From Hydrurus foetidus (Eukaryota), in assembly GCA_900617105.1 (NCBI GenBank), contig UYFQ01000645.1, forward strand, positions 1-64,000: a DNA stretch of 64,000 bases. The letters run 5' to 3'. Below are positions 19,641 to 57,081 of the stretch, piece after piece. Every line of letters begins with the position of its first letter. The stretch's first letter is position 1. Position numbers and translations under genes: made by a program. Below the pieces are notes generated by a model that had not been told where the DNA came from, did not search any database, and saw nothing but the letters and a program-made list of their open reading frames with translations.

Positions 19641-20077
19641 CCTCAACGAAGGACACGACAACTCTTACTGCAACATGGAGGTCTAATCATTTCAACTACC
19701 GGATGGGGACTCACTCAGATTCCTCTAGACAGTCAGAACACCCACGCGGAGGAAGGGAGGTGTATCACCGGTGCCGCGTGTTAGACCCATTTAGAATAAG
19801 AGCACTGCGGAGAACATTTGCAGAAGTTAGATTGGAGTGTCAATGACAATCGTGCTGGATCAGAGTTGTCGTGTCGTATCGCGTTGGCCAAGTCTGTCAC
19901 TCGTGTACTACTACTCTATCGTATCGGATTAATATATGTACTGTTTTCAACGAGACAGCTTTGAAAGAACCGGATTATCGAATAGCGCAGCGGCGCAAAT
20001 TTTTTTAAGCTACAAACGGCCAAAGCCACGAATTTGTTTTACTGAATCTTCAGAGAGTACGTCCGCATCAGGGGGTA

Positions 20078-20691
20078 TGTTCAGGATTCAAGGTATAAAC
20101 CAGCATGGTTGTATGTATTAGAGTAAATTCACTAAGATGCTACAAATTCAAAGAACCGCGTGCCACGCCTGCTGGTCTGGGGGGCTGCGGTCCAAAGGCT
20201 TTCTGAGACGGACCCCCGTTTTCCCTGCCGAATGTACGCAGAAAGGAGTCGAGTTCGAACTCGTGACAGTGTGACGACTTTTTGATTTATCCAACAGACG
20301 TTATACTTTTGAATCCTGTTTTGAATGAATGATGCGTACGACTCATGAAGCAAATGATATGAACTTCAAAACTGGTACCTAGATAGATAAAAGATGACAT
20401 GTATGGTTGTAGTCTCCTGTTCGACGATCAACGCATACTTCTTTATCTCGTAATTAAGAAGCCACACTAAGTGCAACCACCCAACCTTCAGCAAAGGAAG
20501 ATCTTCTGTCGACAGGAAAGCGCGCCTGAAGCCACAAGAACTTTCCTGCTAAAGGTACCAGCTTATATTACAGAAGGATAAAGGATAGAAGACGACTTAT
20601 TCTGAATTTGGTCCAACCTTCCCAGTTTCACCGTATCAGTGAAACGGTTGTAACCAACGAACAAGTCCACGGATTTGGAAAATCCCAATCA
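20078..20691 (+). repeat. 3' LTR of C2
   Basis: Preceded by AGGGGGTA, followed by TSD ACCAC. Confidence 0.93.
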
Positions 20692-26200: not shown

Positions 26201-26271
26201 GAGGATATTAGCGGTATACTATCTTTGAGGATGTGTGTTTCGGCAGCATGTTTTTTGCTCGATGGCCTCAT
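23223..26271 (-). CDS. Sedolisin/tripeptidyl-peptidase-like serine protease (family S53) with P/T/S-rich stalk and C-terminal TM helix; exons about 26271-25093, 24737-23747, 23479-23223 (5' exon(s) probably further upstream)
   Basis: Prodomain (VSDPESENYGQH); GESNLD Glu/Asp; ASGDDG; SVGAT|..TGGGFS joined by a GT-AG intron; GRGFPDIS; GTSASSP catalytic Ser; GWDPACGLGSP; PT repeats; hydrophobic VVGSFFATIVIIIFACLCVIW. Confidence 0.9.
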
Positions 26272-27163
26272 TCCGGTTGATCCTGTACTTGGCTCTGATG
26301 CACTTATCTGGATTATTTGATGTGAGTCACTGATGCGATTATAGGTCTCAGAGAAAGTAGCGCATGTTGAGAACGCGCAATGAGGGTAGATGCATCTTGA
26401 TCAAATCGGCACTGCCCTCACTGAAGTCTGGTAGCCATTGTCTTCATGGTAGAAGCTCAAGTCGGTATGTCTACTTTTTGTGAGTTGACTGCAGCTCCAC
26501 CAGAGGTTGGAAGAGGTGGAGAAAGTCGGAAGTTGGAGGTGATCTGAAATTCAACGTATCTCAATCGCATGAAAATCATTCCATCCTTGAAATGAACTGG
26601 ACGTTCCACATAAAAGTCGCACCACCGGTTTCGTTTCGTCGGAAGTAGAAACGGGGAGTCAGATGGATCCTGGATCCAGATCACACCTAGAAACGAGATT
26701 CTTACCGTTGAAAATTAAATCAATTTGCCTTTTTTCTTTATTCCCTGTACTGTAGTTCTGCTGAACCAATACTGGACACTGAAAATTATAGAATTTGCTA
26801 AATATCAATTTGCCGTGATAGTAATGCACGTCAAATTATTGGCGCTGTGTACAATGTCACGAATTTGAATTCTTCAGTACTTCTGAGTGAAATAAAATAT
26901 AGACTTCGATTGTTGTCAACTAGTTGTTAATATATTTAACGAATCGATTGTAATAATTAAAGTAATATTAAATAACATCAAAACAACTTCGTTCACATCA
27001 TATCGTTTCTTTTCCTAATTCTAACTTTTTTTTATGTTCTTGTAGTAGAGCAATTATTGCGCTTCTATTTCTCGCAACCTTGAGAGCCGTCAATCCTTTC
27101 TGAAAACGCGTAAAGAATAATACAAAATAAAATGAGTACTCACGATAATTACATATCAGCGTA

Positions 27164-35300: not shown

Positions 35301-35808
35301 TGTCAGTCCAGCATATTCATGCTTGATCTGTTAGCATAGTTTCATCTGTAGATTAGCATTCACATGTCACAAGTAGTGTAGCGCTTCCTCACCCAAAACA
35401 CCTCCATACACTGTTGTGTACATACGCTAATCGTTCTTCTAGCGATATCCCCCTTCGGGGCCATCACCAAGCATCCGGTTTTTCACCACCAAGCATCCGG
35501 ATTTCCACCAGGTATCCGGTTTCCACCAAGCATCCGATTTCATGAGCAGCGAGGGTTCCGCCCATTGCTCAATCGCCAACTTGAATATTCGCTGAATATG
35601 TTTCCACTTCGGCGATCACCATTTCATGCACAATGGATGCTTTGCTTTGCTTCTTTGATGGTTGTCTTCTCTGATATCATCGCCAGTTGTTTTACTACTT
35701 GATCGTTGTAAGTAAACACGTCTTCCGAGACCACTTCCATCAGCCAGTCTTTCCTTTGCGCTTCCGCAGCCAACAGGTAGCTCGCTTCACTCCACAGTCT
35801 GACTCACA
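35301..35808 (+). repeat. 5' LTR of C3 (contains about 4 tandem CACCAAGCATCCGG-like units)
   Basis: Direct repeat of 41778-42285. Confidence 0.95.
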
Positions 35809-35819
35809 TGGTAGCGATT
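35809..35819 (+). promoter_or_regulatory. Canonical tRNA primer-binding site of C3 (probably initiator Met)
   Basis: TGG complements tRNA CCA; TGGTA implies A73/U72 as in eukaryotic initiator tRNA; tRNA identity is inference. Confidence 0.65.
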
Positions 35820-35898
35820 GCATAGAAAGTTCAGCAATCATCGATATAGTATCAATATATCAACGGTATCTCATCACAACAGATATCTCAAGTCGGCC

Positions 35899-37677
35899 AT
35901 GATGCTACGATCGTCCGACAACACAGACCAAAACAACGAGGAATACCATGACCCAACTGGGCTAGAGACTCCCAGCCGCGCCCAGCTGCCGCGCATGCTC
36001 TCCATGACCCTCGCAGAGTTCGATCAACGTGTCGCCGAGGCCATAAGAGCCCAAACTCAAAATTTGGTCACCAGCTCGACGGCAAATCGGCAAAATCCTT
36101 CCACACCAAACCGACCTCGACGAGGCTCCCATGCAGAGGAAGCCACGCCACCGCGCCAAACTTTGGCAGAAGTTTCAGCACATGGGCTATCATATAATGC
36201 CGCGTTGGAATCCGTTTTGGAGCTCAAACGGCTAAAACTCGATCTCGTTCTGACGACCTCTTCCGAAATGGATAGCATCAAGCAAAACCAGATCACCACA
36301 ACGACTGTGGGATCTAACAAGCGCTTCAAAGCTCTCGACAACATGCTCCACGTCGTTGGACTCTACCCAATGGCGATGGGCACGCGTCGCGAGCCAATCC
36401 CAACGAGGCACAACCCATCAGGATACTCGGAGCCTACAACGTCGGAGAATCTTGATGGAACATTCAACTATGTCCCTGCCGACGATGTTACACGATGGGC
36501 CCACGACAAGAAACGTTTATACAACGTCATGTTGAACGCTTTCAGCGAGTCTACCCATTATCTATGTGCCGATGCCTTTACCTCTCGCGATGGGATCGCT
36601 ATATATAAACGTATGCACAAGCACTACTACGGACATACTGAAGCAGACATCAACCGACTTCGGCGGCTTCTACAAAACTTCAAGGGCTCTACGGCTACTT
36701 GTTTTCAAGAGGATTTAGTGAGGTTTACAACGTTGATGACAGAATTCGAGTATGCCCAGGCCAGACCGAGCACCGAGCAGGAGCGCCTTCAATTCCTTCA
36801 CAACGCCTTCATGAACGACCACCGCCCCAACACAAAATCCTACTTTATGTCCTGCCATAGCAACATGCTCACCTATCACCAAACTTTGGAGAGAGCTGTT
36901 GTCTATTCCGAGTATGCCCTCCTCCAAGACAAGCCGGTCAAGATAGCTGCCTTGTCCACTACCCCTGAAGCCTGCCGCAAGTTCCTCGCTGGTACCTGCC
37001 TTCTCGGTAACAAGTGCAAGTACTATCATGCTCCTGCTAAGCCACCGGCAGCGACACCTCCCTCTGGCAAAGCACATCCTCCTGCCCCACCTGGATCCGC
37101 TCCAGTCACGGACAAGAACCGGATCAAAGCCAAGGGCAAGTACCCTCCCAAGCAGACCTTCCCAGTGACGAGTATCGATGGCCGCGTCCCTTACCTCAAG
37201 AGCAACATCCCCATGAAGCTTCTTACCAACGGACCCAACATCAACCCTGAGGACGGATGGCAGAACAACACGCTTTTGGATAACGCCGAACCCTCCGGGT
37301 ATGTGCGCTTCTCCCTCAACATGTTCCGAGTCACCGACACTGACCCAGCACCTCCTCCGGATACACCGTCTAATCCTCCTCTCGAGTTAGCACTTCCGCC
37401 AGGACTCCCTCCATCAGGACACTCACCACTGCGATCTCCAACTCGTCCATCTTCTAATGCCGCCTCTCCCATAATGCTCCGACCGTACGTACGTTCCGAA
37501 CATACTCAACCAGCATCTACCCCAGTAGTCCTGGGTACCCCCGACTCCTGTCGCCCCAGAGAATGCTACAGCATGGGACACGCCGCGCCATCAGAACATC
37601 TCTTCGCCAACATATGGGACCCCAATGCAAGAAGAAGTCGATGCCTTCACACGTACCTGGGCCTTCCTCACCAATGA
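35899..37677 (+). CDS. gag: C3 Gag-like protein with a CCCH zinc finger and Pro-rich tail
   Basis: Position after the PBS; Copia-gag-like SRDGIAIYKRM...; CRKFLAGTCLLGNKCKYYH = CX7CX5CX3H. Confidence 0.75.
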   Translation: MMLRSSDNTDQNNEEYHDPTGLETPSRAQLPRMLSMTLAEFDQRVAEAIRAQTQNLVTSSTANRQNPSTPNRPRRGSHAEEATPPRQTLAEVSAHGLSYNAALESVLELKRLKLDLVLTTSSEMDSIKQNQITTTTVGSNKRFKALDNMLHVVGLYPMAMGTRREPIPTRHNPSGYSEPTTSENLDGTFNYVPADDVTRWAHDKKRLYNVMLNAFSESTHYLCADAFTSRDGIAIYKRMHKHYYGHTEADINRLRRLLQNFKGSTATCFQEDLVRFTTLMTEFEYAQARPSTEQERLQFLHNAFMNDHRPNTKSYFMSCHSNMLTYHQTLERAVVYSEYALLQDKPVKIAALSTTPEACRKFLAGTCLLGNKCKYYHAPAKPPAATPPSGKAHPPAPPGSAPVTDKNRIKAKGKYPPKQTFPVTSIDGRVPYLKSNIPMKLLTNGPNINPEDGWQNNTLLDNAEPSGYVRFSLNMFRVTDTDPAPPPDTPSNPPLELALPPGLPPSGHSPLRSPTRPSSNAASPIMLRPYVRSEHTQPASTPVVLGTPDSCRPRECYSMGHAAPSEHLFANIWDPNARRSRCLHTYLGLPHQ

Positions 37678-39001
37678 CGAAGTCACCTCCTCCACTGTCT
37701 TCCAGGGTATCTGCCGACAATGCTCCACGTACATCCTTCAGTACTACACTGTGGTCCACCACCGCATTCATCAGCAGCCCCTCTCAGCAAATGACTTCAT
37801 CATCTATGTGAACCGTCCCGCCTTGCCTGGATCCCCTACACCGGCGCCTCATATATACCTCGCTATTTTCGGCTGGGTATCCCCAACCACCCTCAGCAAC
37901 TGCCGCGCTGATGTCAGAGACGGATACTCTCGGTATATGAACCTCATCCACAAGATTGCTCGCAACCTGCTGCTCGCCAACACTGAGCCGCCGACTCCAC
38001 CCAATCTTGAGTATGACCCAGGGCACTACCGCACCTTCAATCCAACCTTGATTGAAGACATCACCACCTATCAGTCCACAGTCGGGAACATTTTCTTTTA
38101 CTTCCTCGTCCACACTGCTCTGTACCTCGACGACCAGATCAGTCCAGACCACATGGCCATATTTGAAAGTGTCCTCATCTACGACTGTGCCTCCTGGGTC
38201 GCAGCACAGCTTGCCCGATATGCCAATGCACCCGGCAACTCCTGGCACAACATTCCCACCCTTCGCCTCCTCATGCTCACGGAAGTTGATGCACACGTTG
38301 ACGGTCTTATGACACGAACTGGATCGAACGAGTCATTCATCCAAGCTATTCGAGTCGTAATCCAGCATGTCCTACCCGACGCATTTCATGTTACACCCAA
38401 CAGCCTCTTCGTCGGACCCGATCCTGTTGAGCCCACCGAGTCACACTACCGCACAGTATCTCTCGCCAGGGACCTCGCAGCATCTACTGCCCCACAGAAC
38501 ATACGTAAACGATACACTTTGCGGAACTATGAGAGTGATTCAGAGTCCTCTGTCGAAGACTCCATCTGTTTCCTCCCGTACAACATGTCCTGTCCAACCC
38601 ATAACATCAGTGGCCCTCGCTGCGCCCTCTCTTATGTTAACTACCTCCATGGCGCCGTCACACATCTCATCGTCCCTCCATCAGACGCATCCCCATGGGT
38701 ACCACCGGACGCATCGATGGAACTTCAGCGGTACAACGCCAGGAAGCGCGGCATCGCATTCCAACAAGACCAGGCTCAAGGGGACACTAAGCGTCAAGAC
38801 ACCACCTCATCCTCGTCCGCATCCTCTTCCGCATCACCGTCACCGTCGATTCCCACTACGCTTCCGGAGTTCAATACTCCTCTACCACCTGTCCCATCGA
38901 CACCCTCTGACCCTCTTACCGGGTCACTCAAGCCGCGCAACCACTTGCATCCGACTCGCCTTTCACTATGCCTATACCCACTCGACTCCATCATTCCGTA
39001 A
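37625..39001 (+). CDS. Uncharacterised 458-aa ORF between gag and pol of C3
   Basis: Long open frame overlapping both neighbours; no protease or integrase HHCC motif recognised. Confidence 0.5.
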   Translation: MQEEVDAFTRTWAFLTNDEVTSSTVFQGICRQCSTYILQYYTVVHHRIHQQPLSANDFIIYVNRPALPGSPTPAPHIYLAIFGWVSPTTLSNCRADVRDGYSRYMNLIHKIARNLLLANTEPPTPPNLEYDPGHYRTFNPTLIEDITTYQSTVGNIFFYFLVHTALYLDDQISPDHMAIFESVLIYDCASWVAAQLARYANAPGNSWHNIPTLRLLMLTEVDAHVDGLMTRTGSNESFIQAIRVVIQHVLPDAFHVTPNSLFVGPDPVEPTESHYRTVSLARDLAASTAPQNIRKRYTLRNYESDSESSVEDSICFLPYNMSCPTHNISGPRCALSYVNYLHGAVTHLIVPPSDASPWVPPDASMELQRYNARKRGIAFQQDQAQGDTKRQDTTSSSSASSSASPSPSIPTTLPEFNTPLPPVPSTPSDPLTGSLKPRNHLHPTRLSLCLYPLDSIIP

Positions 39002-41570
39002 CTACCGTTACACACACATCCTCACCGACCTCGCGTCGGGACAATACTATCCTATATATACAAAAGACCGGTCCGCCTCTGAACTCTGTGCCCGCATTGC
39101 AGCCTTCTTCGACCTCACCCCCCAATGGAACCACAATACCCCTGGGGTTGATCGCTTCATCCGGCATGACCCAGAGGCCAACTACCGATCTGAAGAATTT
39201 ACTGCGCTTTGCGCCCGATACCGATACCGACTTGAGCACACTGCACCTCGTGACAAACATGCCAACGGCATCGCTGAGCGAGCAGTCGGCATTGTAGCTC
39301 TCAAGACAAACGTTGCCATGATAACCCCTGTTCCGCATGTGCCAATGAAGTTCTGGGACCTTGCAATGTCCTATGCATGTGTTACTCATTCCTTTAACCT
39401 TAACAAGCGTATTGGTACTTCTCCGTATCACTTCACTTCTGGGCAACACGTGGACATCAGGATGCTTCGACCATTCTGGGCACCCTGCTATGTCAAGCAC
39501 GCACCCAAAGATCAGAAAAGTAAAGTTGGGTCACCTCGTGCCTACCGTGCTCGGTTCGTTGGTTATAGTTTTACATCTATACTAGTACCACAATATTTAG
39601 TATTAGAAATACTACCCAAGAACACCTACGGTACTGTTCGAGTCAGTAAGGATGTCATCTTCGACATGCACAACAACTTCAAGCATGACTCAGATGCACA
39701 CTTCCCTACCGACGAGGCCTTCGCCCTCATCCCGTCCCTCTACTATACTGATAATAATAATGACCCTATTGTGGTGCCTGAGCGAGTCGACCTACCCGGC
39801 CTCCCCTCACCTGCACCCCTTATCGACCCCGACTATATAACCCCTGTCGCTGAGACAGAGCACTCAGTCAACGATGACATGATATACTGGTCCACCTACA
39901 CCAGTTCTTCCACATGCTTCCCTGTTCACCTCTTCCGTGTCCTGCACTACAACATAGCAGTCCAAATCAAGGATCCCTACATCCCCAAAGACTTCTGGAC
40001 CGCAATGCAGTACCCAGAGTGGGAACAGGCCATCAACACTGAGCGAACTAAGTTTGAAGTCAACAACTGCTTCCGGTCTGTTCCCTTCACCGGACAGCAC
40101 CTCGTACCAATGATGTGGCTCTTCAGTATCAAGACTGACGGCACCAAGAAGGCCCGCCTCGTAGGTCGTGGTGATCTCATGATACCCTGGGTCGACTTCG
40201 ACCCCTACGCAGTATACTGCGGTAATGTCAATGCGTCATCGATCAAGATTGCACTCGTCATAGCCGCAACCTACAAATTATCCATGCGGGGAGGAGATTT
40301 AGTAGGCGCCTACTTAATCACACTCGCTAACCCCGACTTTCCCGTTCACATCAAGACACCTCAAGGTTACACCACACCTTTTGGCACATGCTTTCAAGCC
40401 ATTGGCAACCTCTACGGTTTTCCACCAGCAGGCCAGAATTTCTCAAAGGAATTCGACAAATGTGTACGCGAATGTGGATACGAAAACACACCGTGGGACT
40501 TAAAGTTCTTCTTTAAGTGGGTCCAAGGTCAACCACTGATACTGATAGCACACTCAGACGACTTCAGATGGTTCGGACCACTTGCACTCATTAGCGAATG
40601 GGATCTCCTCATCGCTACATTCAACTCCCACAAGTATGAAGTCACCGACGCGACCTCCAAAGAGTTCGTCGGCATCCGCATTACATGCGATGAACACTTC
40701 AACTACTACATGGATCAGTCACGCATGATCACATCCATCGTATCGGAGGCCAACCTTGCTGGCGCCGCCGATGAGCATCTACCATATCCACCTTCTGGTG
40801 AGAGTCTGTCCAAGGCGGACAACTCTACCGATCTCGATAGGCACATGTATAATAAGTATCCCTACCGACGGGTAGTTGGTCAACTTATGTACGGAATGGT
40901 ACACACATTGATCACAATCATGTACGCTCTCAACATACTATCAAGATATAGTAACAGTCCAGGTGCAAGACACATCAAGTTCCTTAAGCACTTACTTCGA
41001 TATGTCAAGTACGCCAAGATGGATAGACTGAAATTCACCACACACGACGGTCCCACCGACATCGCTACGATGACCAGTCTACTGCAGTTGAAGTTCCAAT
41101 GCGACGCCGACCTCGCCGGTAACAAAGACAACCGTCACTCCCAGACCTCCTACATTGGCTACCTCGCCGACAATGTCATCTGCTGGAAGAGTACCGACCA
41201 AGGCAGCATCTCCTCATCAACTGCGGAATCCGAAATCAAGGCAGTTAATCACGCACTAAAATCCGATGTCATTCCCCTCCGGGGCATACTAAACCACATG
41301 GGATGGACACAAGCTCCTACAGTCATCGAAGAAGACAATTCTGCTTGTGTTGATGCTTCAAATCATACACACATGACCAAGAACCTTCGTCACATTGACC
41401 TGAGCGAAAACTACTTTAAGGACAAAGTCGCCGATGGTACCTGTGTCATTGTTAAAATCCCTTCGGGCGAAAACAACTCAGACATAGGTACGAAAAGAGT
41501 TCCACTACCACTTTTCGAATACCTAACGCACAGGCTCGTTGACAAGTCTTTACGAACTAATATTAAATAA
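38940..41570 (+). CDS. pol: C3 Pol: integrase core, RT, RNase H (uninterrupted)
   Basis: RHDPEANY, HANGIAERA, FVGY, SKDVIFD; KARLVGRG, GNLYG, HSDD; DADLAG, STAESE, EDNSAC, SDIGTK. Confidence 0.92.
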   Translation, partial: TTCIRLAFHYAYTHSTPSFRNYRYTHILTDLASGQYYPIYTKDRSASELCARIAAFFDLTPQWNHNTPGVDRFIRHDPEANYRSEEFTALCARYRYRLEHTAPRDKHANGIAERAVGIVALKTNVAMITPVPHVPMKFWDLAMSYACVTHSFNLNKRIGTSPYHFTSGQHVDIRMLRPFWAPCYVKHAPKDQKSKVGSPRAYRARFVGYSFTSILVPQYLVLEILPKNTYGTVRVSKDVIFDMHNNFKHDSDAHFPTDEAFALIPSLYYTDNNNDPIVVPERVDLPGLPSPAPLIDPDYITPVAETEHSVNDDMIYWSTYTSSSTCFPVHLFRVLHYNIAVQIKDPYIPKDFWTAMQYPEWEQAINTERTKFEVNNCFRSVPFTGQHLVPMMWLFSIKTDGTKKARLVGRGDLMIPWVDFDPYAVYCGNVNASSIKIALVIAATYKLSMRGGDLVGAYLITLANPDFPVHIKTPQGYTTPFGTCFQAIGNLYGFPPAGQNFSKEFDKCVRECGYENTPWDLKFFFKWVQGQPLILIAHSDDFRWFGPLALISEWDLLIATFNSHKYEVTDATSKEFVGIRITCDEHFNYYMDQSRMITSIVSEANLAGAADEHLPYPPSGESLSKADNSTDLDRHMYNKYPYRRVVGQLMYGMVHTLITIMYALNILSRYSNSPGARHIKFLKHLLRYVKYAKMDRLKFTTHDGPTDIATMTSLLQLKFQCDADLAGNKDNRHSQTSYIGYLADNVICWKSTDQGSISSSTAESEIKAVNHALKSDVIPLRGILNHMGWTQAPTVIEEDNSACVDASNHTHMTKNLRHIDLSENYFKDKVADGTCVIVKIPSGENNSDIGTKRVPLPLFEYLTHRLVDKSLRTNIK

Positions 41571-41777
41571 CATAAATACTTAATATCCATATTTCTAACA
41601 TACGTACTAATTTTACTATCTTATATGAGTGCACGCATATATTATAACTAACTTTTTACACTTTTTGCCAAATCTCCCGTACGGGGAGTACATCCTCAGT
41701 ACGGGGAGTATATATACACATATCATTCATTTCGATACTCTCAATAACACGTTCAGCTACATCTTCACTACGGGGAG

Positions 41778-42285
41778 TGTCAGTCCAGCATATTCATGCA
41801 TGATCTGTTAGCATAGTTTCATCTGTAGATTAGCATTCACATGTCACAAGTAGTGTAGCGCTTCCTCACCCAAAACACCGCCATACACTGTTGTGTACAT
41901 ACGCTCATCGTTCTTCTAGCGATATCCCCTTTCGGGGCCATCACCAAGCATCCGGTTTTTCACCACCAAGCATCCGGATTTCCACCAGGTATCCGGTTTC
42001 CACCAAGCATCCGATTTCATGAGCAGCGAGGGTTCCGCCCATTGCTCAATCGCCAACTTGAATATTCGCTGAATATGTTTCCACTTCGGCGATCACCATT
42101 TCATGCACAATGGATGCTTTGCTTTGCTTCTTTGATGGTTGTCTTCTCTGATATCATCGCCAGTTGTTTTACTACTTGATCGTTGTAAGTAAACACGTCT
42201 TCCGAGACCACTTCCATCAGCCAGTCTTTCCTTTGCGCTTCCGCAGCCAACAGGTAGCTCGCTTCACTCCACAGTCTGACTCACA
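41778..42285 (+). repeat. 3' LTR of C3
   Basis: Direct repeat of 35301-35808, followed by CCCCC. Confidence 0.95.
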
Positions 42286-44292
42286 CCCCCCATACAAACC
42301 CTTTCTCACATGGCTCTCACCCAAAATTCGAAAAGTTGAAATACCAGACAAGGTGCTAGCCCGCTTGCATCACACTACTACTTACCTACACTTAGAGTTG
42401 AACGATCATGAGAGACCTGAGTTACGATGTTTTCTTTGAGCCTGGTGGCATTTTGAAGTCTATCATTGCAGACCTTTTTGATTGCAACGGATTTCTTTTC
42501 TAGAAGAAGAATCTATTCGTGACTTTCTTCAAATCTTGCATGTCAAATCCAGATCATTGTGGTGATATCATTTCGTTATTACACAGCTTGGCATGCTGTT
42601 ATTTAAATATCTATGAGAAGCACGTATCAATCCCCAGTGGTTGCATTGTGAAAAGATTGAAATTGGGAATGTTAATGATTCTGAAGTTCGAATCAAATTG
42701 AGATGTTCATGTGGCGGAGCATTCTACGCAATTCAAAAAACTGCCTTGCATCCGAAATTTTATTGAGCGGGAACAGACTGACGTAAACGACGAAGGCATG
42801 CACGAGGACAGCGATTTACTGTATCTATTTCTTGAAAAGTTTCTCTACAAGAACTTTTGGAGCTGGTTAACAAGAGAAAAAGGGACTAATGTAAATGATT
42901 ACATTAAAGAGAGACCAAATGATGTTAACTATCCTTATTCTCTTGTCCTGCTTGACAAAGTGTATGATATTACGGGCTATTTGTGCGGTCATCGTGTCTT
43001 GAGTCTTTGAAAACGGATTACAAAGTTGTTTTTCAGGAGTTCTGGGAATCATCACGATATCCTACTGCAAATATGGCAATTGATGCATGTTTGCCAGCTA
43101 AGTTCTTACTATTTCGTCAGCATTCTGAGGGGTTTTATTTTGCTCGTGATGGAAATTATCAGTTTATTAAAATCATTCAGGCTATTTACATGCAGTCACA
43201 TTCAACTGATGTAATGATATTATTTAATTCTCTGGAACCGGTGAAACTTGTGGAACAAGTTATTTTGAAGTCATCTGTGGTACATCGCGCATTTCAGCAA
43301 TCGTGTTTCATGCATGCTGATCTTTTCTTTCCAGGGTTAGATCTCTCAACCGATAAGGGCATAACCGTGGCATGCGCTGCAATTATAGAGCAGATTTGGC
43401 GCACGAACTTTGCAACTTGAATCGACAGAAACGGTGATTGCACCAAGGATCTCCTCGCGTGTGAGATGAGCGAAAACAAGAAATTAAATGTAGGTGATTC
43501 ACAATGACTGGCTGAATTTTGCGGAAACTCACTGTCAATGTAATGTTGGTGATGTATGAAGTCATCTGGTATTTGGGTTTTGAGTGAAAGGCATGTGAGA
43601 AATATTTGAATCAGGGAGGGGTCCCCTCTCTCTACATACCCCCTTACCTACAGTACCTTCCTTGTACCCTACAGCCTGCAGTACCGCATCTTTTTTTTAA
43701 TCGGACTCTTGTTTTGATATCGCAAGTTGAATTGTGTACCAAGTGTGAAACGAATGGACTTGTTTCACGGGTGTTTGAATTAAATTAGGTGTGAGATGTG
43801 AAATTGCAAATTGACTATCTATGGGTGCGTTCGGTAAACTTGAAAATCCTACATTTCCCACGATTTTGGCAAAATGTCTTCATTTCCGACGATACAAGGT
43901 TTTTTACTGGACTGAGCGTTCGGTAAATTTGTTGCAGCGTGAGGAATCACGGAAAGTTGGGGGTTGAAACGATCCATGTTTTAAGTTTTAAAATGAATCG
44001 TGAGAACTGCAAGTTTTGAGATGAAGCTTTTAGGCCACCCGAAAAATTTGCTGTGTCTGCCTATACGCAGTACGCGCATATAAACGCAAACTGGATTTTT
44101 GCGTATATACGCGCGCATATACGCGCGCATATACACGAGCTTTACATATAAAATGCGTATGCATATATACGCAGTTCTCGGAAATGTGCGTATTGCGTAC
44201 ATATTTTTCCAATTTTTTGCGCATGGGCAGACGCAGAAAATTTGTGCTGTGGTTTTGTGCTGTAGACCCCTCAAAAATTTCGGACTAACCCT

Positions 44293-44501
44293 CGTGATAG
44301 TACCGGGTCCAGGGTCCCGATCCTACCGGGTACCGACTCTACCGGATCCTACCGGGTACTACTACTGTACACTACAGTTAGGCTGTAGTATCGTCGTAGC
44401 CTTCTGCAGCGTCCACTAAGAAGTTAAGTAGCTTCTAGCCTAGCGACTCTGTAACTAAGCCTACCACTCCTCGACCCCTTTCTCCATCTCTCCCGACCAC
44501 A
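44293..44501 (+). repeat. 5' LTR of G3
   Basis: Near-identical to 50897-51105. Confidence 0.93.
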
Positions 44502-45075
44502 ATAGATCTATTATCCTCGGGGAAATTTCTACTGCCCCTAATTCCCTCTACTCGTCCAAACTTTAGTTACGACTTCCAACACCTGAGTATTATTACTCAC
44601 GACATCTTCGGAGTCGAAATTCTTGCTGAGCTACGCTCCAAGAACTTAGTTTTAAGTTAGCGAAAGTTGGGCTTAGCCTCTTTCCTCTTGGAACCCATTA
44701 TTGGTGTCTCCAAAGTTCGTAGTTGGTTGAATTCGCGAAAGCCTTCACCACTCGACATTCTCAAACTCGTCGGTTTGCAATTTGAACATTGGATTCATTG
44801 CTAACGACACCAAATTAGTCTAAGGACTTCTTTTGGCTGGTGGGAATTACTTCCTTCATCCTTTACGGACACCAAAAATTTTCTCCACTCAAAAATTGGC
44901 TTTCACGCCTAAGAGATTTTCTCAACAAGAGTTGGTTGAAATCGACTTATTCGCTGTTACTTGCGTAAAGTACCCTCAAAGCTAACAAGGCGAAGCTCTG
45001 GCAAAATTTTTTGACGCGGAGATCCCTTCGTTGCTTAGACTTTGACGGATTTATAACGTCTTGAAGTCATATACC

Positions 45076-47303
45076 ATGGCAGATGACGAAGAAGCATCTT
45101 ATCCTCGTTACGACGATGAGGGTAACCTCATCGAACATCCTCCAGTTGTTGACACTGAGGAAGAGGAAGTGCTAGAAGAGGACGGGGGTATTTTAAATGC
45201 CACCCAAACCTCACAGTCTTCGGTGGCGCAGACTATCCTGTTTCCACAGACTATGCAGATGCAGCGAGAGATATTCGTCCTAAAAGGCGATTACATCACT
45301 CCGCAAGACGCTGAGAGCTTCTTTGAGCAAGCTCAGCGGCTGCCTCGCTTACGCATTAATGAATGCATGCAACGTCAAGCGATTGACTTGCTCCACGTCA
45401 AGATTATGACAGACGCCGCTCCTTCGTCCTGACACTAGAACAGAGGTTCGAATGGCAGAATATACTTGACATTGATTATGTTGCGAAACTAATCATGCAG
45501 TATTTTGGCTCGAATAAACAACGAGACCATGCAGATCATACCCTCGCGGAACTTTTCGCTAAGGTACCATTTCATTACTCACTAAATTCCGATGAGGAAG
45601 AGTTGAGCACGTACATGGCGTACAAAGAATTGGTAACCAATTACGAGCGCACCCGCCGTATCACTCCCAACCAACAGTTGATAACGATTTTGGAGAAACG
45701 ACTTGCTCGTGGCAGTCGTATCCAATCAGACTACTTTGAGTCTAAGAGGGTCGACACACAGTCACCCCCTACATGGGAGTCCGCCATGATGCGCGTCATC
45801 TCTGTCGTCTCCGCGGCACGCGAGGCTATTCGAATGAGCAGGAGCTACGGCAATCCTGATCTCATCTACTCGTTTCCGAGTACCGCAGTACCTCCTCTAC
45901 GTGCATCACAGAAGAGGGAGAGTACACTCGCGATTCGCGATGTGGATCCACCTAGCGGCAAAAGCACCCTAGCGGTTCGTACCTCATTGGATGTACCCCC
46001 AGTGGCTCCTCGAGTCTGCCGCTCGTGTGGAAATCCTGCACACATGCTTCCTGCATGCCCTGTGTTATATTACACTGACACAAACAACGATCACTCCATT
46101 CAATGGTCTGAATCAGCTGTTGGGCAGGCATGGTTAGCCAACGGTGAATCCATGTGGCAGGAAAGGTTAATCCTTCCTGGTTACGAAAACCGTCAGCGGC
46201 ACCACCCCGCTGGTTCCCCTCCTTTCTTGATGTTCACTAACAAGAAGTCAAAGAATAACCATGGGTCGGGTAACCAAAACAACCCCAACCAAGGGAACCA
46301 AGGTAATAACCGCGGTAACCAAGGTAATAACCAGGGTAACCAAAACAACCAGGGTAACCAAGGTTACCAAGGTAATAACCGCGGTAACCAAAATCAAGGT
46401 TATGGTAACCAGAGTGCTGGTAGAACCCCCCGTGGGGGTAAATACAACCCACCCCAGGGGGGACCCACCTCGTCTTCCGATTCAGCGGGACAAAACCAAG
46501 GTATAAATGATTATGATGTTGATTCATCTGACATTTTAAACCTACCGGATGTTGTGTCGTTCATTTCACATGTCGATACACTTCCAACGCTTATTCAAGA
46601 TGAATATTTGCATGACCCGTCTACCCTTCCTTCTAATTACTTAAACGTTACTGTTTCGGTACAGGATAAGGATACGGAGAACCAGACTAGCGTACGACGC
46701 ATTGTGGGCAAGGCCGTGTTGGACACCGCCAATTATTCTGAGGATTTTATTTCTTTCATTATGATTCAAAAATTAAATGCTATGCATCTCTGTTATGAGG
46801 CTCCTAAAGCCATAACTGTTTGCTCTGGTCTTGATGGCCATTGCTATATAAATAACGAAATTATTAATTTGACTCTCCAGTTTCATTCTTATGATGGCGA
46901 ATGTCACAAAATCCCTTTAACCTTGCGAGTTAATCGGAATACAGATATTGAACTTTTGTTAAGTCGCAACACTGTAAATAAATATGATTTTATGTCATTA
47001 ACACCTTTTGCTTTTGGTATCTCTCCTGAGCTCAGTGCGGAGAACAAAAGGAAAAGGGATATTCGTTGGCGCGAATTTGAAGAAAGGGAAGCGATAACAA
47101 AGCTTGACCCACTTCACTGGAGCAAATACACCAGGCGTATGATATCGGAGGGATTCCAACCCGAAGAACCAGAGGTAGAGTCGATTACCCCAACATATGA
47201 CTTGTTGAAGGGAATCACTAAGACGAAACTCGCTCTGAAAAGAGACCATACGGCCTTTGCCCGAAGCCAAAACCAAAGAAGGCCATTTTGCACGCACCTT
47301 TAA
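45076..47303 (+). CDS. gag: G3 Gag-protease (frameshift near 45430)
   Basis: CRSCGNPAHMLPAC knuckle; NQG-rich tract; VLDTA protease site and VCSGLD motif shared with G1/G2. Confidence 0.82.
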
Positions 47304-50300
47304 CCAAGGAAGTCGTGGGGTCAGGTTGTCATGCAACGTTCACGTGTAGCGTTACCCAGGTTGGTTCCGAGGGAGTAGCTACCCAAAGTCCATGTGGTGA
47401 TGTGGGTTGTGAGCGACTGGCTAGTGTCACGACTAGACTCGCAAAACGTACGGGTGATACCCCGCACCTAGGTGGTGACTCGATTCCCACCCTCACACAT
47501 ACCTCTGGGGACTCTGTTACATCAGACTATGACGTGGAAGCCGTATGGCCAAGCGGTGTCGCACTCTCCGTTGACGAGATTGACAATGACAAGACTGACA
47601 CTTTCGCACCTTTCTTGCGTGACAAGACGTGCCGAAATGTACCGCCCAATGGGCCGGATGATTTTTTGTCACAAATCCATTTTGAGGGAGATGAAAGCCT
47701 TCAGAAGGATTTGCGTACTCTCTGTTCAGAATTCGCTGATATTTTCAGTGATAAGCTAGCCCCGCAAGCTGCACATCTCAAGCCGTTTGAGATCAATTTG
47801 CCTAGGCAAAAATGGGAGGTTCCATCGAACCGCACACCAGTGCGCCCACAATCCTCTAAAAAGGAACATTACCTCCGCACTTCAATTGAAGAGATGCTGG
47901 AGGATGGTGTGATCGAGAGGTCGAACGCTGCATACTACAGTCATCCTGTAATGGTAAATAAGACAGCCGATACGTATCGAACCTGCATCGACTATCGTGC
48001 ACTCAATGAATGCATTGAGCCGGCCTCCTTTCCCCTACCCAATATCAAACACCTCTTTGAGAGGATCGGTAATAAAAAACCGGATATTTACGGAGTGATG
48101 GATTTAACCGCGGGTTACCACCAAGCACCTCTGTACACACCCCACCGAATCTATACCGCATTTATATGTTTCATGGGGGTGTTTCAGTTCACGAGATTGC
48201 CTTTTGGCCCTTGTCGAGCCCCCTCTTACTTTCAAGAGCAGATGGTGACAACGGTCCTTTACGGTCTTATATACAGCTGTTGCGAGATGTATCTCGATGA
48301 CTGTATCGTATATGGCCGGGGCGAAGCAGAGTTTCTCAAGAATCTGCGCAGCGTTTTTGAAAGATTTCGACTTAAAAATCTTAAGCTCAAAGCAAAGAAA
48401 TGCAGATTCGGTCTCAAACGTATCGAATACGTGGGACGAGTCATAGACAAAGATGGTTTATCCATGTCTAAAGAAAAGATTGAGACAGTACTCAACTTCC
48501 CTCTTCCTAAAGAAGTAACATCCCTTCGTGGATTTCTTGGCTTAGCCAACTATTTTCGTCAATTTGTACCGTTTCATTCGGACATGGTCAAACCACTTCA
48601 AATGATGGTGGACCCAAAGGCACTTAAACGTTCCCCCATATATTGGACCCCCGAGGGGACTTTGGCATTTAATGAGACTAAAATCGCGGTATCGCGTTGT
48701 CCTTTAATGTACTTCATCAATGATGATTCACCCATCAGATTATATACTGATGCATCCGACTATGGCATCGGTGGTGTACTCTTCCAAATTGTCGACACCG
48801 TGTGGAGACCAATTGCCTTCATCAGCAAATCTCTCTCGGCAACACAAATTAATTGGTCGACAATACAGAAAGAAGCTTATGCTATCTTTTTCTGTTGCCA
48901 ACAACTCGATTATCTCATTCGAGACCGTAAGTTCACTATTCATACTGACCATATGAATTTGACTTATATGAAACAAAACCCTACCTCAATGGTAACACGG
49001 TGGTTCATTGCAATGCAAGAACTTGATTTCACCGTACACTTTGTCAAAGGGACAGATAATGAACTTGCCGATGCTCTGTCACGGTTATGTCCAAACCTTA
49101 CCGAAATTGCTCTGCCTAAGACAATCAGGTCCGAGGGTGATACTTCATCATCATCTTCTTCATCGTCATCTTCTGCAGTTTCGGCTTTAACGGTTATTGA
49201 ACCGCCGACAGATGAACAGAATGTTTACATTCAAATGTGCCACAATGCAATTGTTGGTCACAACGGCGTCGACCGTACCCTCACTCGACTCTTTAGTCTT
49301 AACCACGTGTGGAAAAATATGAAACAGCACGTACGCTCGTTCATACGAAACTGCCCATGCTGTCAGAAATTGAGCGCAGTTGATACAAAAATCAGCGCTG
49401 CTCATTTTTCAACTTCAACGCATGCTATTTTCGATACATTAAATATCGATTATATTGGCCCATTCCCTGATAAAGGGTATATCCTTGTCATAATCGACAC
49501 CTTCTCCAGATGGACAGAAATGTTCTGGTGTAAGGATGCTACGGCTCAGTCTGCATGTGAATGCTTACTGACTCATTTTGGTCGATTCGGATCGCCAAAT
49601 ATGATTAGATCCGATCGAGGATCCCACTTCGCTAATGATCTCATTAAAGAGTTCTTAGACCTTACGGGGACACCCCATAATCTCACTTTGGCTTATTCCT
49701 CACAAGAGAATGCCATTGTAGAAAGGGTCAACAAAGAAGTGAATAGACACTTACGCGGTCTCGTGTTTGATACACCATCTCTTGAACACTATGCTAAATG
49801 CATACCATTCGTTCAACGTATCATTAACAGTTCAGTTAATCGACGAACAAATGCAAGTCCTGCTTCGATTTTATTCGGCAATAAACTTGATTTGAATCGG
49901 GGTATTTTAACACCTCATCTATTACCAACGTTGACATCTTCGAATTCAACATACATCACAGATCTCATCGATATACAGGACAAGGTCCTCGATGCAGCAA
50001 TCGGTTCTCTTCAGAAATGTGATGACAAACACAAAAAGTCCACACAAGGTGTGACAGTGTTCCCCATAGGGTCATATGTTCTTGTAAAACAGGAACACCC
50101 TCCTACTCGATTACACACAAAGTGGAAAGGTCCTTTCCGTGTTGTCTCCTTTGAGGGATCCGAGTATGTTCTCGCGAACTTAATTACACACAAGCACAAT
50201 AGTGTACATGTGAAGAATCTTAAGATTTTCAATTATGACCCATCGCTGGGCATACCTGCTGATACAGCACGTCGCGATTACATGGAGTATTTCGTTGAGA

Positions 50301-50503
50301 AAGTTCTTAGTCACACTGGTGATTCAAAGAAACCGACATCCATGTCGTTCCATGTTAAATGGCTCAACTATGATAACTCACATAATACATGGGAGCCTTG
50401 GAAGAATCTCCGGCTCTGTGATGCACTCCATGTATACTTGCGGAATAATAACATGTCACGTTTTATTCCCAAGAATCTTGAGGGATCAACCGATGAGGTT
50501 TGA
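47288..50503 (+). CDS. pol: G3 Pol: RT, RNase H, integrase, chromodomain (open 1071 aa)
   Basis: RTCIDYR, LPFG, YLDD; TDASDYGIG; HHCC; DYIGP/RSDRG/VERVN; WKGPF; YFVEKVLSH...FHVKWLNYDNSHNTWEPW. Confidence 0.96.
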   Translation: MHAPLTKEVVGSGCHATFTCSVTQVGSEGVATQSPCGDVGCERLASVTTRLAKRTGDTPHLGGDSIPTLTHTSGDSVTSDYDVEAVWPSGVALSVDEIDNDKTDTFAPFLRDKTCRNVPPNGPDDFLSQIHFEGDESLQKDLRTLCSEFADIFSDKLAPQAAHLKPFEINLPRQKWEVPSNRTPVRPQSSKKEHYLRTSIEEMLEDGVIERSNAAYYSHPVMVNKTADTYRTCIDYRALNECIEPASFPLPNIKHLFERIGNKKPDIYGVMDLTAGYHQAPLYTPHRIYTAFICFMGVFQFTRLPFGPCRAPSYFQEQMVTTVLYGLIYSCCEMYLDDCIVYGRGEAEFLKNLRSVFERFRLKNLKLKAKKCRFGLKRIEYVGRVIDKDGLSMSKEKIETVLNFPLPKEVTSLRGFLGLANYFRQFVPFHSDMVKPLQMMVDPKALKRSPIYWTPEGTLAFNETKIAVSRCPLMYFINDDSPIRLYTDASDYGIGGVLFQIVDTVWRPIAFISKSLSATQINWSTIQKEAYAIFFCCQQLDYLIRDRKFTIHTDHMNLTYMKQNPTSMVTRWFIAMQELDFTVHFVKGTDNELADALSRLCPNLTEIALPKTIRSEGDTSSSSSSSSSSAVSALTVIEPPTDEQNVYIQMCHNAIVGHNGVDRTLTRLFSLNHVWKNMKQHVRSFIRNCPCCQKLSAVDTKISAAHFSTSTHAIFDTLNIDYIGPFPDKGYILVIIDTFSRWTEMFWCKDATAQSACECLLTHFGRFGSPNMIRSDRGSHFANDLIKEFLDLTGTPHNLTLAYSSQENAIVERVNKEVNRHLRGLVFDTPSLEHYAKCIPFVQRIINSSVNRRTNASPASILFGNKLDLNRGILTPHLLPTLTSSNSTYITDLIDIQDKVLDAAIGSLQKCDDKHKKSTQGVTVFPIGSYVLVKQEHPPTRLHTKWKGPFRVVSFEGSEYVLANLITHKHNSVHVKNLKIFNYDPSLGIPADTARRDYMEYFVEKVLSHTGDSKKPTSMSFHVKWLNYDNSHNTWEPWKNLRLCDALHVYLRNNNMSRFIPKNLEGSTDEV

Positions 50504-50896
50504 GTTCGAACGTATTATCTTTTGAAGATTTTTTTAGCCTAATTTTTTGCCCTTTTCTAAGGGATTTTTATGGTTTTTTAGTCAGTAAAAATCTAACATA
50601 ATTACGTTTTCGACCCTCGTACAACAGTACTCTACTGTTTTTGTACAACCCCACCTTATCTTTCGACATCGAACCCCTCTTCTCTGCACCTTTTCTTTTG
50701 TAAAACTTTTTATGTTCACTTTTATTATTATTTTTTCAAATTTTCGATTTTGCAAATTTGTCAATATTTTTATTTTTGTTTTTATTTTTATTTTTATTTT
50801 TATTTTGCATGTTAAGTTTTGCAAAGAAACAGGGGTTTCGATTTAGTTCAGATTTAGCTTAGATTTTTTAGAAAGAAAGAAAGATAAGTGGGGTAA

Positions 50897-51105
50897 TGTG
50901 GTAGTACCGGGTCCAGGGTCCCGATCCTACCGGGTACCGACTCTACCGGATCCTACCGGGTACTACTACTGTACACTACAGTTAGGCTGTAGTATCGTCG
51001 TAGCCATCTGCAGCGTCCACTTAGAAGTTAAGTAGCTTCTAGCCTAGCGACTCTGTAACTAAGCCTACCACTCCTCGACCCCTTTCTCCATCTCTCCCGA
51101 CCACA
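50897..51105 (+). repeat. 3' LTR of G3
   Basis: TGTGGTA...GACCACA after the PPT. Confidence 0.95.
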
Positions 51106-51276
51106 CCCTAACCGCTTTGCAATACCATCCAAACTGTATTAATAGTATCAAATAGTGCTATGAGCATCTTAACCTCATGTAATTCGATTTTGACATTTTT
51201 ATTATGAAATTTTCGGAGTGCCTCTTTCACTGCAGGATGAGCTAGTATCTCGGTTACACCTAAATCAAGCACTGGT

Positions 51277-51857
51277 TGCACGATCGTGCGACCGGGTCCA
51301 CACTCAAAGTGGAATATTAGATACAGTGGTGTACACCCAAAATATTACTTCTTGATGGGGTCATTACAGAGCCAATTTTCACAACAGCGATTGCTTGCAT
51401 AGGAGAATCCATTTCCGGCAACCGTTGGCAATCAAGCTGCTTTAACGGAGAGGCTTTGAAGCGCCAAGGCGTGGTACAAGAGGGTAAAAAGTTAACTTTT
51501 TCCCAGCGCAATTCAAGTGCGCCAGCTATCATGGAATGATTCTGCTGCCAAACTAGAGAAGAAACAAGCTTTTAATAACTCGCAATTGCTCTGCTTGCAA
51601 ATTTATGACCATATATGTCATAAAAATATGCATGCACTCTATGGATATCCACGTAGCAATTTTTGGAAGCAATTTTATAAAAAATTAAATACGCCATTAA
51701 ACTCACCGTGGTCGAATTAGCCTAGTCGAGCTGACTGCTTGCTGACTCAAGCAATCGCTGTTGTGGAAATTGGCTCTGAAATGACCCCATCAAGAAGTAA
51801 TATTTTGGGTGTACACCACTGTTTCAAATATTCCAAAGTTGGCCGCACGATCGTGCA
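51277..51857. repeat. Inverted repeat, arms about 51277-51397 and 51748-51857
   Basis: CAGTGGTGTACACCCAAAATATTACTTCTTGATGGGGTCATT occurs on opposite strands with a spacer of about 350 bp. Confidence 0.85.
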
Positions 51858-54090: not shown

Positions 54091-55475
54091 CGGTGCACAG
54101 GTGCACCAAGAATTTGATGCACGCGTGCGCCGAAAATCGAAAAAAATTACCCTATAAAAAGCATCGTACTATAGTTGAAAAACGGTTTTCAAACTTCTTC
54201 GAAATTTAAGATTTATTTTCCCGTGTAAAATTTTCGGTGGATCTTAAAATTTTTCCGAAAATAGAACGAAAAGTTAGATGATTGACCCTATTGTTGGGTC
54301 CAAGTTCCCTCTATTGAATCATCTAACCAGCAAAAATAACACTATATTCGAATGTCAAAAAATGATGCACCTGTGCATCAAATGGTGCACAGGTGCATCA
54401 CTTGGGAGACGGGAGATCAATTGTTGGCGAACTCGCGTTGACAATGGGTTTGGGTGGATTGATAATTAGGGGACGAGACAGGACTGCCGGTGGTGGTCAA
54501 CATCGTTATCTGAGATGAGATTACCAGGAAGTCGGATCCATTGAGCGTCACTGACAATGAAACAAAGTAGTTCATCTGTTGTAGTCGGGTAGAACATCCA
54601 GCCTAGATAGCCTGAAGTGCAACGTCACACTACCCCCACTTATCCTCGCCTCAACGAGAGTGTCCTCTTGGATCAAAGACAAGAACCACCAATGGGGAGT
54701 CGAACTCGCTCTCTAGCCGGGCGAGGTTCTAGCGTCGGTGTTCTACCACTTACCGTTGAAGTGGTAGATATGGCGTGGGAAAGCGGACCGCTGTTTTTGC
54801 ACCGCAAACGTTTTGTTATTTTTCCCGCATGGTTGAATATTTTTTGAGTTCCCGTTTCCCCTGTCAGTGAATTATCTTCAAAAAAGATTCTCTGTACTCC
54901 AGCCGTTAGAGCACTCTTCAGTAAACCAAGACCGAAGAATTCACAATTCATCCTACGATACAGGTAGTTTGCACAACTGCCATTAAGGCACGGAGGCACT
55001 TTGTGACGTGTTCTCGCGGATAGAGTCTTTGGAACGGGGGTAAACTTTTGCTGACTGCTTGGGGCTGCAACGCCATTCCTATCTCATCTCTGACTTATGC
55101 TCTAATACTTCACAATGATTCTCATGACCCGTGCACGAACTTCATATCAATCGCGGCCATTCGAAAATTTCCGAGGGATAACCGCGATCAGGAATAAGTT
55201 CAAGGACGTCGCAGATTGCCGAAAGTGTTTTTGTCATTCGGAGCTGACTTTCTACATCATTGAGATCAATCCATACGGTTGGACGAAATACGAAATACAA
55301 AATAGAAAAACACCGTAATCCTCCGGGTCCTCGTTTGTTATGGTGACGGATCCGAAATACAAAATGAAAATTTTTGTTTTTCGTGATCCTCCGGGCAGTT
55401 GTATGACAGAATGGAATTATTCAAATTAAATTTAAGAAATCGTCAGTTTTAAGCACTAGCAACTAAGTTGCAGTT

Positions 55476-57081
55476 ATGGAGAAGTCACCAAAACTTCGGG
55501 ACTGCATTGGTGAGGATGGGTATCCAGATTTTGAAAGTTATGTCGTCTTTAAGAAGAGGTGCGATGAGCTATTAGAAGAAAACGAGGCTGCCCAACCAGT
55601 TCCACCAAAGAAAATGCCATTTCGTAACAGAAATAACGGTGGATACAATCCTAATGACTGCTTTGAGTCAGATTGGTATCGCAGATACGTCAGATTCCCT
55701 GATCATCCACTGAATAAGAAGCATATGAATCTATTTAGAAGAAGATTTAGAATGCCTCACACTGCATTCTTAGATCTAGTGAGGGAGGCTAGAGAAGATA
55801 AGTGGTTTCCTGATTATGAAAGACGTAACGCTCTTGGGGAGATGGGCATTTTACTGGAAATATTGATTTTGGGAGCACTACGTTACCTGGGAAGGGGCTG
55901 GACTTTCGATGACCTCTACGAGGCTACAAGCGTCTCTGAAGAAGTACATCGTCGATTCTTCAAAGTATTCGTTGTAGCCTGCCGCAAACATCTCTATCCC
56001 AAGTGGGTGAAGAGGCCGGAAACTCCTGAGGAGATAGAAGACTGTATGTCTGAATATGCTGAGGCTGGTTTTGATGGGTGTATTGGGTCAGCGGATGTTA
56101 CACATATCATATTGGAGAGGTGCCACTACAAGCTTAAGAATCAGAATTTAGGAGGGAAAAGTTCTCATACGACGCGTGCATTCCAAATCGTGGCCAATCA
56201 TCGACGCCAGATTATTGCGTCAACAGTTGGATATCCCGGAAGATGGAATGATATGACTATAGTGCGATTTGATGGGTTTGTGACTGACATGCAGAATGGT
56301 ACATACTTGAATGATCATCAATTTACACTGAAAGATAGCGAGGGAAAAGATGAAAATTATACTGGGGCCTGGATCCTTGTGGATGGGGGATATTTAAATT
56401 GGCCCACACTTATATGTCCCTTCAAACATTCACAGTCGAAGAAAGAACAGCGTTGGTCCAAATGGGCCGAGTCTATGAGAAAAGATGTCGAATGCACCTT
56501 TGGGATACTAAAAGGTAATAGATAATAATATATTTAAAATTTATTAATATATTTAATATATAATCACTATATTTATAGGGAGATGGAGAATTTTAAAATC
56601 GGGAATCAGAGTTCATGGGATCGAAGCTGCTGATAACATTTGGTTTACTTGCTGTGCCCTACACAACATGTTACTGAATGTTGATGGATTAGATAAGAAG
56701 TGGGAAAATGGTGTACCAAGTACTTTTGAAGGTGAATTAGGGTGGCATGCCGTAGGTGATGTTGAAACTTATGCCCCACTTATATTTCGTAGAGTAAGAG
56801 ATGAATGTGATATAAAAGAACTTGATACTTCACAATTTGCCCGAGGAGATGGATACTTCACAATTTGCCGATACTTCCATCTAAATGATTTATGTAATAC
56901 TCATTTAGACAACCGAGAGGAAGAAATAAAAAACTTACAAAATAGTGGAGAAGAAAATACTTATAAAATATTAAGAATGAAAAATAAAGATTTTAGAGAA
57001 AAATTAGTAACTAGTTTTCATAGGAGGTGGGCTGTTAAAGATATAGTATGGCCTTCAAGAACAGGCAAAATGAAAGAGTAA
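55476..57081 (+). CDS. Harbinger-type DDE transposase, intron 56515-56578
   Basis: FRRRFRM, LRYLGRG, CIGSADVTH, GRWND, LVDGGY, RKDVECTFGILKG|RWRIL, CCALHN; the GT-AG intron restores the frame. Confidence 0.92.

Follow-up and report, generated by a model that had tools for sequence, protein, structure and literature searches.

How reverse transcription begins in an LTR retrotransposon that lacks a tRNA-like primer-binding site (PBS) is the question raised by G3, a Gypsy element within the 64,000-nucleotide stretch of Hydrurus foetidus DNA analyzed here (the window). At the primer-binding position, G3 carries a perfect 12-nt palindrome, AATAGATCTATT (44501–44512, + strand). Comparison with related sequences marks the palindrome as a conserved, self-complementary feature of many chromodomain Gypsy elements, a large clade in which it occupies the primer-binding position. 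It likely allows one copy of the element RNA to act as primer for reverse transcription of another, with no tRNA involved. Such a process would be a new form of priming independent of tRNAs, for which the literature offers a partial precedent in a different superfamily, in the Copia element GalEa.

G3 spans positions 44293–51105 on the + strand, as defined by paired LTRs, a target-site duplication, and a polypurine tract. The 4-bp duplication CCCT lies directly to the left of the element (44289–44292) and recurs in identical letters on its right (51106–51109), and the polypurine tract (50870–50896), read directly in the sequence, stands upstream of the 3' LTR (50897–51105). The two LTRs show 4 differences over 209 bp; the first base is C in the 5' LTR (44293–44501, 209 bp, with a CACA end) and T in the 3' LTR. 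Between them lie a gag and protease region (45076–47303) and a pol region (47222–50503) that encodes reverse transcriptase, RNase H, integrase, and a chromodomain, detected in the order RVT_1, RT_RNaseH, Integrase_H2C2, rve, and Chromo. The best solved relative of pol is Ty3 Gag-Pol (E 4.5e-80), and the acidic RNase H motifs, which have a catalytic role, are present. Because the frame changes twice relative to the single-ORF relative P0001, near 45415–45440 and near 47210–47225, this copy is probably no longer autonomously active. The LTR pair, target-site duplication, polypurine tract, and reverse transcriptase–RNase H–integrase–chromodomain order place G3 among the Ty3/Gypsy elements with a chromodomain, an assignment made by domains and structure, the tree built here having comprised only the window's Gypsy elements G1–G3 and metagenome loci; the integrase lies after the RNase H, contrary to membership in the Copia superfamily. 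Chromodomains have been acquired more than once (PMC5348765).

Several other features of the element and its surroundings are recorded here in their own right. Short palindromes, among them GTAC, CCGG, and TACGTA, abound in the 5' part of the G3 LTR (44293–44370) and likewise at the LTR starts of many loci. A conserved 3' UTR motif (50521–50614 in the window) comprises AAGATT, a 4–5-bp long-range stem, TTTAG, and then a hairpin; it sits directly behind the pol stop in L001, L002, L004–L014, L016, L020, L023, and L025–L027, shows paired changes between families, and was positive in a two-word test in 20 of 74 elements versus 2 of 80 coding controls. The G3 copy of this motif appears worn, and the motif had no match in Rfam. 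Directly behind G3, an 88-bp inverted repeat (51310–51397 and 51748–51835, 95% identical) looks like a small non-coding DNA transposon. Public-run contigs carrying the G3 element came from biofilm, sediment, freshwater, and glacier samples and from one coded organism, and an Atlas search with the element returned generic Gypsy clusters only.

At the junction itself, the 5' LTR terminates in CGACCACA at 44501, and the 10-nt core of the palindrome (44502–44511) is flush with the LTR end; the full 12 nt consist of the LTR's last A, the core, and a T. Downstream of the 3' LTR, the host DNA reads CCCTAACC and contains no palindrome. A sequence-only reading of this locus had described the palindrome and its flush core, the lack of a TGG, and the lack of a complementary site in the 209-bp LTR, and direct examination bears out each of these observations. 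No TGG was found in the first 6 nt behind the 5' LTR, the longest complement to the first 14 nt after the LTR was 4 nt within the 259 nt searched upstream, and neither G3 LTR contained a match of at least 6 nt to the junction site. The absence of both TGG and an LTR complement also upholds the argument made there that this element suits neither priming by a tRNA 3' end nor Tf1-type priming out of its LTR. Among the 40 best-supported of 217 differences between public-run contigs and G3, none falls within 44485–44521, a sample too small to bear on conservation. Rfam returned nothing at the G3 site or in 10 loci, the sole hit being a weak unrelated match (E 0.31).

The same reading had put the chance of such a palindrome at a fixed site at 4^-6. 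This figure says little for one copy, since the window holds 22 perfect palindromes of at least 12 nt and the single G3 copy is therefore weak evidence that needs cross-family support; what raises the palindrome above chance is that its position is repeated across families. A second instance occurs within the window. Gypsy G2, on the opposite strand, carries a palindrome with different letters at the same position, AATATCGATATT (10749–10760, − strand), behind a CGACCACA LTR end, and this palindrome is one of the 22. The probable G2 5' LTR (10760–11005, − strand) has a TGTGAC start, a GACCACA end, and a gag-like frame behind it; the G2 3' LTR lies outside the window, and the boundary was taken from likeness to the G3 LTR end. 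The palindrome at the LTR junction was absent from both Copia elements that have two LTRs in the window.

Positions 1–14260 appear to hold nested elements, with Gypsy G1 (+ strand) inside the integrase of G2 (− strand); the G1 3' LTR, at about 6090–6212, has an ACCACA end, and its 5' end is beyond the window. The G2 5' LTR adjoins a broken Copia-like element. A young Copia (35301–42285) has 508-bp LTRs that are 99.2% identical and an ordinary TGGTAGCG primer site. In the other Copia (14260–20691), the 5' LTR is followed by TAAAGAAGTAAC, neither a TGG nor a palindrome and possibly a site of the half-tRNA type. No tRNA gene was found in the window. The window also contains a tandem array of 8- and 12-nt units (about 30460–31300), a gene with a pro-kumamolisin (S53 peptidase) domain (25072–26400, − strand), and a DDE_Tnp_4 transposase (55467–56525, + strand).

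A protein search identified 1003 relatives at E 1e-50 or better among 7224 candidates, 120 of them listed, and an alignment of 55 of the listed relatives was used to fetch metagenome loci, of which we took the best 80 of at least 170 confirmed. Three scans of viral contigs found no relative. We examined the position of the palindrome in three ways. First, the LTR boundary was fixed as the point where the second LTR copy stops matching, which was possible within one contig for G3, L024, L038, L044/L045, and L048 and by a sister contig for L017 and L071. A perfect 8–12-nt core was flush with the LTR end in all seven of these families, the two sister-contig cases having been looked up from sites known beforehand to be palindromic and the five within-contig families not; the chance of a flush core is about 0.005–0.007 per site at the local composition. 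Second, we applied an automatic test to the 31 loci in which a script placed an LTR start behind a polypurine tract with no fewer than 310 nt of sequence beyond that start. A palindrome of at least 10 nt directly behind a CA was present in 17 of these loci versus a mean of 1.4 and a maximum of 4 in 60 dinucleotide shuffles, and in 3 of 31 upstream controls. For cores of at least 8 nt, the count was 23 versus 4.6 in shuffles. Palindromes beginning 2–4 nt ahead of the CA end were found in 2–4 loci only, which is near background.

Third, in a hand-curated list, a perfect 8–14-nt core lies at an LTR-end-like site in 54 of the 80 metagenome loci, a list built by looking for palindromes that describes their diversity, not their frequency. 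One further locus (L039) has a palindrome with one mismatch. The remaining 25 have no junction, as they begin inside gag or pol, stop before the LTR end, have no 5' LTR (L043), or contain a 3' LTR only with unrelated DNA behind it, where for L019, L047, and L069 "unrelated" means that no gag-like frame follows. A second candidate palindrome lies close by at L051, L053, L054, L068, and L077.

Together with G2 and G3, the 54 loci give 56 sites, which fall into 43 families at 85% integrase identity; the integrases of the relatives are 34–53% identical to that of G3. The letters at these sites vary widely as their symmetry persists. There are 29 distinct cores, and TGG stands at the start of none of the 56 sites. 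An outer pair between the LTR's last A and the base behind the core is kept in 53 of 56 sites and broken in 3. Among the 17 distinct 10-nt cores, pair 1 is A-T or G-C and pair 2 is T-A in 16, whereas every one of the four Watson–Crick types is found at pair 4 and again at pair 5; 13 different central 4-mers are found over all cores. Whole-pair differences appear inside one family (ATACGCGTAT versus ATACTAGTAT) and between two sister families (ATTATATAAT versus ATATTAATAT). The LTR ends in CA at 49 of the 56 sites and in TA at 7 (L005, whose 10-nt core stands behind a TA end, L008, L014, L028, L046, L050, and L057), the TA ends being either a true variant or decay. The junction almost always reads pyrimidine-A-N-T, with A at −1 in 56 of 56 sites and T two bases on in 54. 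The longest complement to an LTR stretch is 4–7 nt in 49 sites and 8–9 nt in 7, and a search for a second, inverse-complementary 9-mer gave at best 5 of 9 matches for G3 (in the next 60 nt) and at most 7 of 9 over 55 sites.

These comparisons support the palindrome as a selected feature maintained by paired changes across 43 families, and on their evidence the feature is real, clade-wide, and covarying in chromodomain Gypsy elements. Because full symmetry is kept while the letters change, we infer pairing between two copies of one sequence: the letters themselves would tend to be preserved if a protein bound here, and the loop could drift if the site were a hairpin, and neither fits the pattern. 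The annealing of two RNAs through the palindrome, which the sequence-only reading had envisaged, is supported, with centers complementary in 29 of 29 cores and a predicted hairpin energy of 0.0 kcal/mol for the palindrome alone in 56 of 56 sites. That reading is partly borne out; it overlooked the precedent in the Copia element GalEa (PMC5445492) and the pairing of flanking U5 and leader sequences.

The predicted self-duplexes of the palindromes range from −6 to −14 kcal/mol, with G3 at −11.6 kcal/mol. In G3, the palindrome is flanked, across 4-nt spacers, by the U5 arm TCCCGA (44491–44496) and the leader arm TCGGGG (44517–44522), which are predicted to pair both in the single-strand fold and in the co-fold. 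The 46-nt site gives −32.8 kcal/mol when two copies are co-folded versus −8.3 kcal/mol as a single strand; the predicted co-fold has a central 12-bp duplex with a U5–leader duplex on either side, and the predicted monomer is a stem-loop with the palindrome at the top. At position 44522, A accounts for 198,668 of 287,121 in summed contig depth (run X1), which we do not take as copy number, and is the majority letter in all 4 runs; this A would turn a G-U pair into an A-U pair and improve the predicted stem. Across the 43 families, flank pairing with the own partner averages −2.6 kcal/mol versus −1.8 ± 0.2 with swapped partners, and none of 300 swaps was as low. The flank signal is modest: 14 of the 43 families fall short of −1 kcal/mol, and among 300 letter-shuffles the observed mean was attained at least once. 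In co-folds of longer fragments, the palindromes pair between molecules at 35 of 54 sites and do not at 19, and at 34 of 54 sites the palindrome is predicted to be more accessible than the adjoining sequence. Upstream of the junction, the G3 LTR contains TGTAA (44450–44454, 52 nt upstream of the LTR end), which we take to be a candidate poly(A) signal. This motif lies within 130 nt upstream of the junction in 31 of 56 sites versus 6 of 56 downstream, mostly 48–77 nt before the LTR end, and if it is a poly(A) signal, U5 would be short.

From these patterns, we favor, with confidence somewhat better than even, a Tf1-like self-priming in trans on an RNA dimer, in which a cut at the palindrome's 3' edge of one RNA would prime synthesis on the other. 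The reasoning runs as follows. The LTR end is set by the 5' end of the minus-strand DNA, which means that a primer has to anneal at the junction site; a primer that pairs with a palindrome itself contains that palindrome; and since the host can hardly be expected to supply an RNA matching each of 29 palindromes, the primer is most likely the element's own site on another molecule. Two genomic RNAs would be held together by three duplexes, a central one of 12 bp and a U5–leader duplex to either side of it, which would make the dimer a counterpart of the Tf1 "pretzel" built from two molecules. RNase H of the element would then cut one RNA at the palindrome's 3' edge, and the 3'-OH so formed would coincide with the LTR end or lie no more than a base or two away; in Tf1, RNase H reportedly cleaves an RNA duplex, according to the title of a 1996 paper by Levin. 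A single cut would leave the primer with a long 5' tail hindering second strand transfer, so a second cut or later trimming that shortens the primer is likely needed. Plus-strand DNA would copy the primer, and because the site would be re-read in reverse each cycle, symmetric changes would be favored. Several observations weigh against self-priming in trans: some self-duplexes are weak (−6 to −7 kcal/mol), the G3 palindrome is predicted to be less accessible in the monomer than the sequence around it (0.48 versus 0.65), 19 of 54 co-folds leave the palindromes unpaired between molecules, the flank signal is modest, and there are sites with a mismatch, a broken outer pair, a TA end, or a second candidate nearby. 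A symmetric version in which both RNAs are cut was set aside, as its minus strand would lack the sequence for plus-strand transfer.

Among the rivals, the one that survives best, itself unlikely, holds that the palindrome is only a dimerization or packaging signal, resembling the kissing loop of a retroviral dimerization site (DIS) closed by the U5–leader stem, with priming occurring de novo, by a protein, or elsewhere. Retroviral RNAs do dimerize through loop palindromes, some of which lie in the PBS itself, as in MMTV and HIV-2 (PMC5874298), and the stem-loop predicted for the G3 monomer has the palindrome at its top. However, a dimer signal has no need to begin exactly on the LTR's last base, yet the palindrome does so in every boundary-defined family, and offsets of 2–4 nt before the CA stay near background. 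No other primer site is seen, TGG being absent from all 56 sites, and a DIS is described as accompanying a PBS, not replacing it (PMC5445492).

Slightly less probable still is a second, shorter transcript whose 5' end is the LTR's last A, which would make the palindrome its first 10–12 nt; annealed to the full-length RNA and cleaved in the Tf1 manner, it would give a short capped primer in trans. Such a transcript would account for the start of the palindrome on that A and would avoid the problem of a long tail, and the pyrimidine-A-N-T at almost all sites resembles an initiator. The same letters, however, would also follow from A/T-rich palindromes behind the CA end that integrase requires.

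We regard as improbable an action within one molecule, whether the site folds back on itself or pairs with a copy farther downstream, the arrangement suggested for the Conserved Hairpin Site of GalEa. GalEa elements are described as having a palindrome at the same place together with a complementary copy 12–41 nt downstream and a larger LTR-junction hairpin (PMC5445492), and a U5–leader stem is predicted in G3 as well. The G3 clade sites, in contrast, have no downstream copy beyond the partial matches given above, and the palindrome alone forms no stable hairpin; the letters of a loop could vary freely, yet the centers remain complementary in every distinct core.

A still poorer prospect is priming by a tRNA 3' end or a tRNA half, with the symmetry incidental. 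Half-tRNA priming without TGG is known in Copia lineages (PMC6317226, PMC10886601), and TGG occurs at or just behind the palindrome end in 5 of 43 families. Against this, it is implausible that tRNAs should match every one of 29 perfect palindromes that differ by paired changes; the predicted folds engage the GG that follows the site with the CC at the end of U5; and PMC6317226 reports half-tRNA priming for Copia alone. Finally, a chance palindrome in one decayed copy, which the 22 palindromes of at least 12 nt in the window and the two frame changes of G3 might have suggested, is refuted by the occurrence of different letters at the same position in 43 families and has a negligible probability.

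Self-priming in trans may also be placed in a wider frame, toward which we lean only slightly. After whole-tRNA, half-tRNA, and Tf1 cis self-priming, it would be a fourth way for LTR elements to start reverse transcription, in which two RNAs pair via a palindromic PBS, one is cut and sacrificed as primer, dimerization is itself priming, and the site is inverted and self-corrected every cycle; this mode would hold for a whole Gypsy clade and would have a separate origin in Copia, in GalEa. If true, genome dimerization would be tied directly to priming, the element would be freed from host tRNAs and any control acting through them, and annotation tools would have a new type of PBS to look for. 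The paired changes across 43 families make the priming question precisely testable. The start of reverse transcription in the absence of a tRNA site or an LTR partner is stated as open for GalEa (PMC5445492), Skipper (PMC5006619), and SM-Tcn1 (PMC2864245), and 6% of plant elements are without a detected PBS in one survey (PMC6317226).

We found no paper describing a palindromic PBS in Gypsy elements in a literature search whose coverage took in few subscription journals and no Repbase Reports. Palindromes are unmentioned in the main texts of PMC6317226, PMC5348765, PMC5006619, PMC6875170, and PMC2864245 and in the accessible part of the Helenus paper (PMC10886601). Bivalve TRIMs are described as being without a PBS and with inverted repeats (PMC6934838). 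The closest precedent is GalEa, a fungal Copia element with a palindrome directly behind the 5' LTR that includes the LTR's final A; its authors proposed a PBS role and state that no model fits (PMC5445492). GalEa and the G3 clade share the absence of a tRNA PBS, a palindrome that includes the LTR's final A (as the outer pair does here in 53 of 56 sites), and a larger stem around the LTR junction, predicted in the case of G3. They differ in that GalEa is a Copia element whereas G3 is a chromodomain Gypsy; the GalEa palindrome is 10 nt long with two variants making up 85% of families, whereas the palindromes described here are 10–16 nt including the outer pair, with 29 variants; and the complementary copy downstream in GalEa has none to match it in the G3 clade sites.

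Among Gypsy elements, Tf1 and its sushi relatives are close in mechanism, being chromodomain Gypsy elements that use no tRNA and take the primer from their own RNA (PMC4600332, PMC6317226, bioRxiv 10.1101/2022.12.06.519325). Tf1 self-priming involves a three-duplex structure in which the central duplex is that of the primer with the PBS (bioRxiv 10.1101/2022.12.06.519325), and the same layout is predicted in G3 for the dimer. A Tf1 RNA supplies its own primer, namely its 5' end, which matches an LTR stretch, whereas in G3 the longest such match is 4 nt and the partner would be the site of a second RNA. Skipper of dictyostelids and SM-Tcn1 are likewise chromodomain Gypsy elements without a tRNA PBS or LTR complementarity, their priming being unexplained (PMC5006619, PMC2864245); they have a polypyrimidine or T-rich stretch, and the word "palindrome" is absent from both main texts. 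Retroviral DIS elements, the PBS palindromes of MMTV and HIV-2, and the tRNA-mediated dimer of Ty3 resemble the G3 site in that short palindromes join genomic RNAs near the PBS (PMC5874298, PMC5371799). In those systems a tRNA still primes, whereas in G3 and its relatives the palindrome occupies the whole PBS position.
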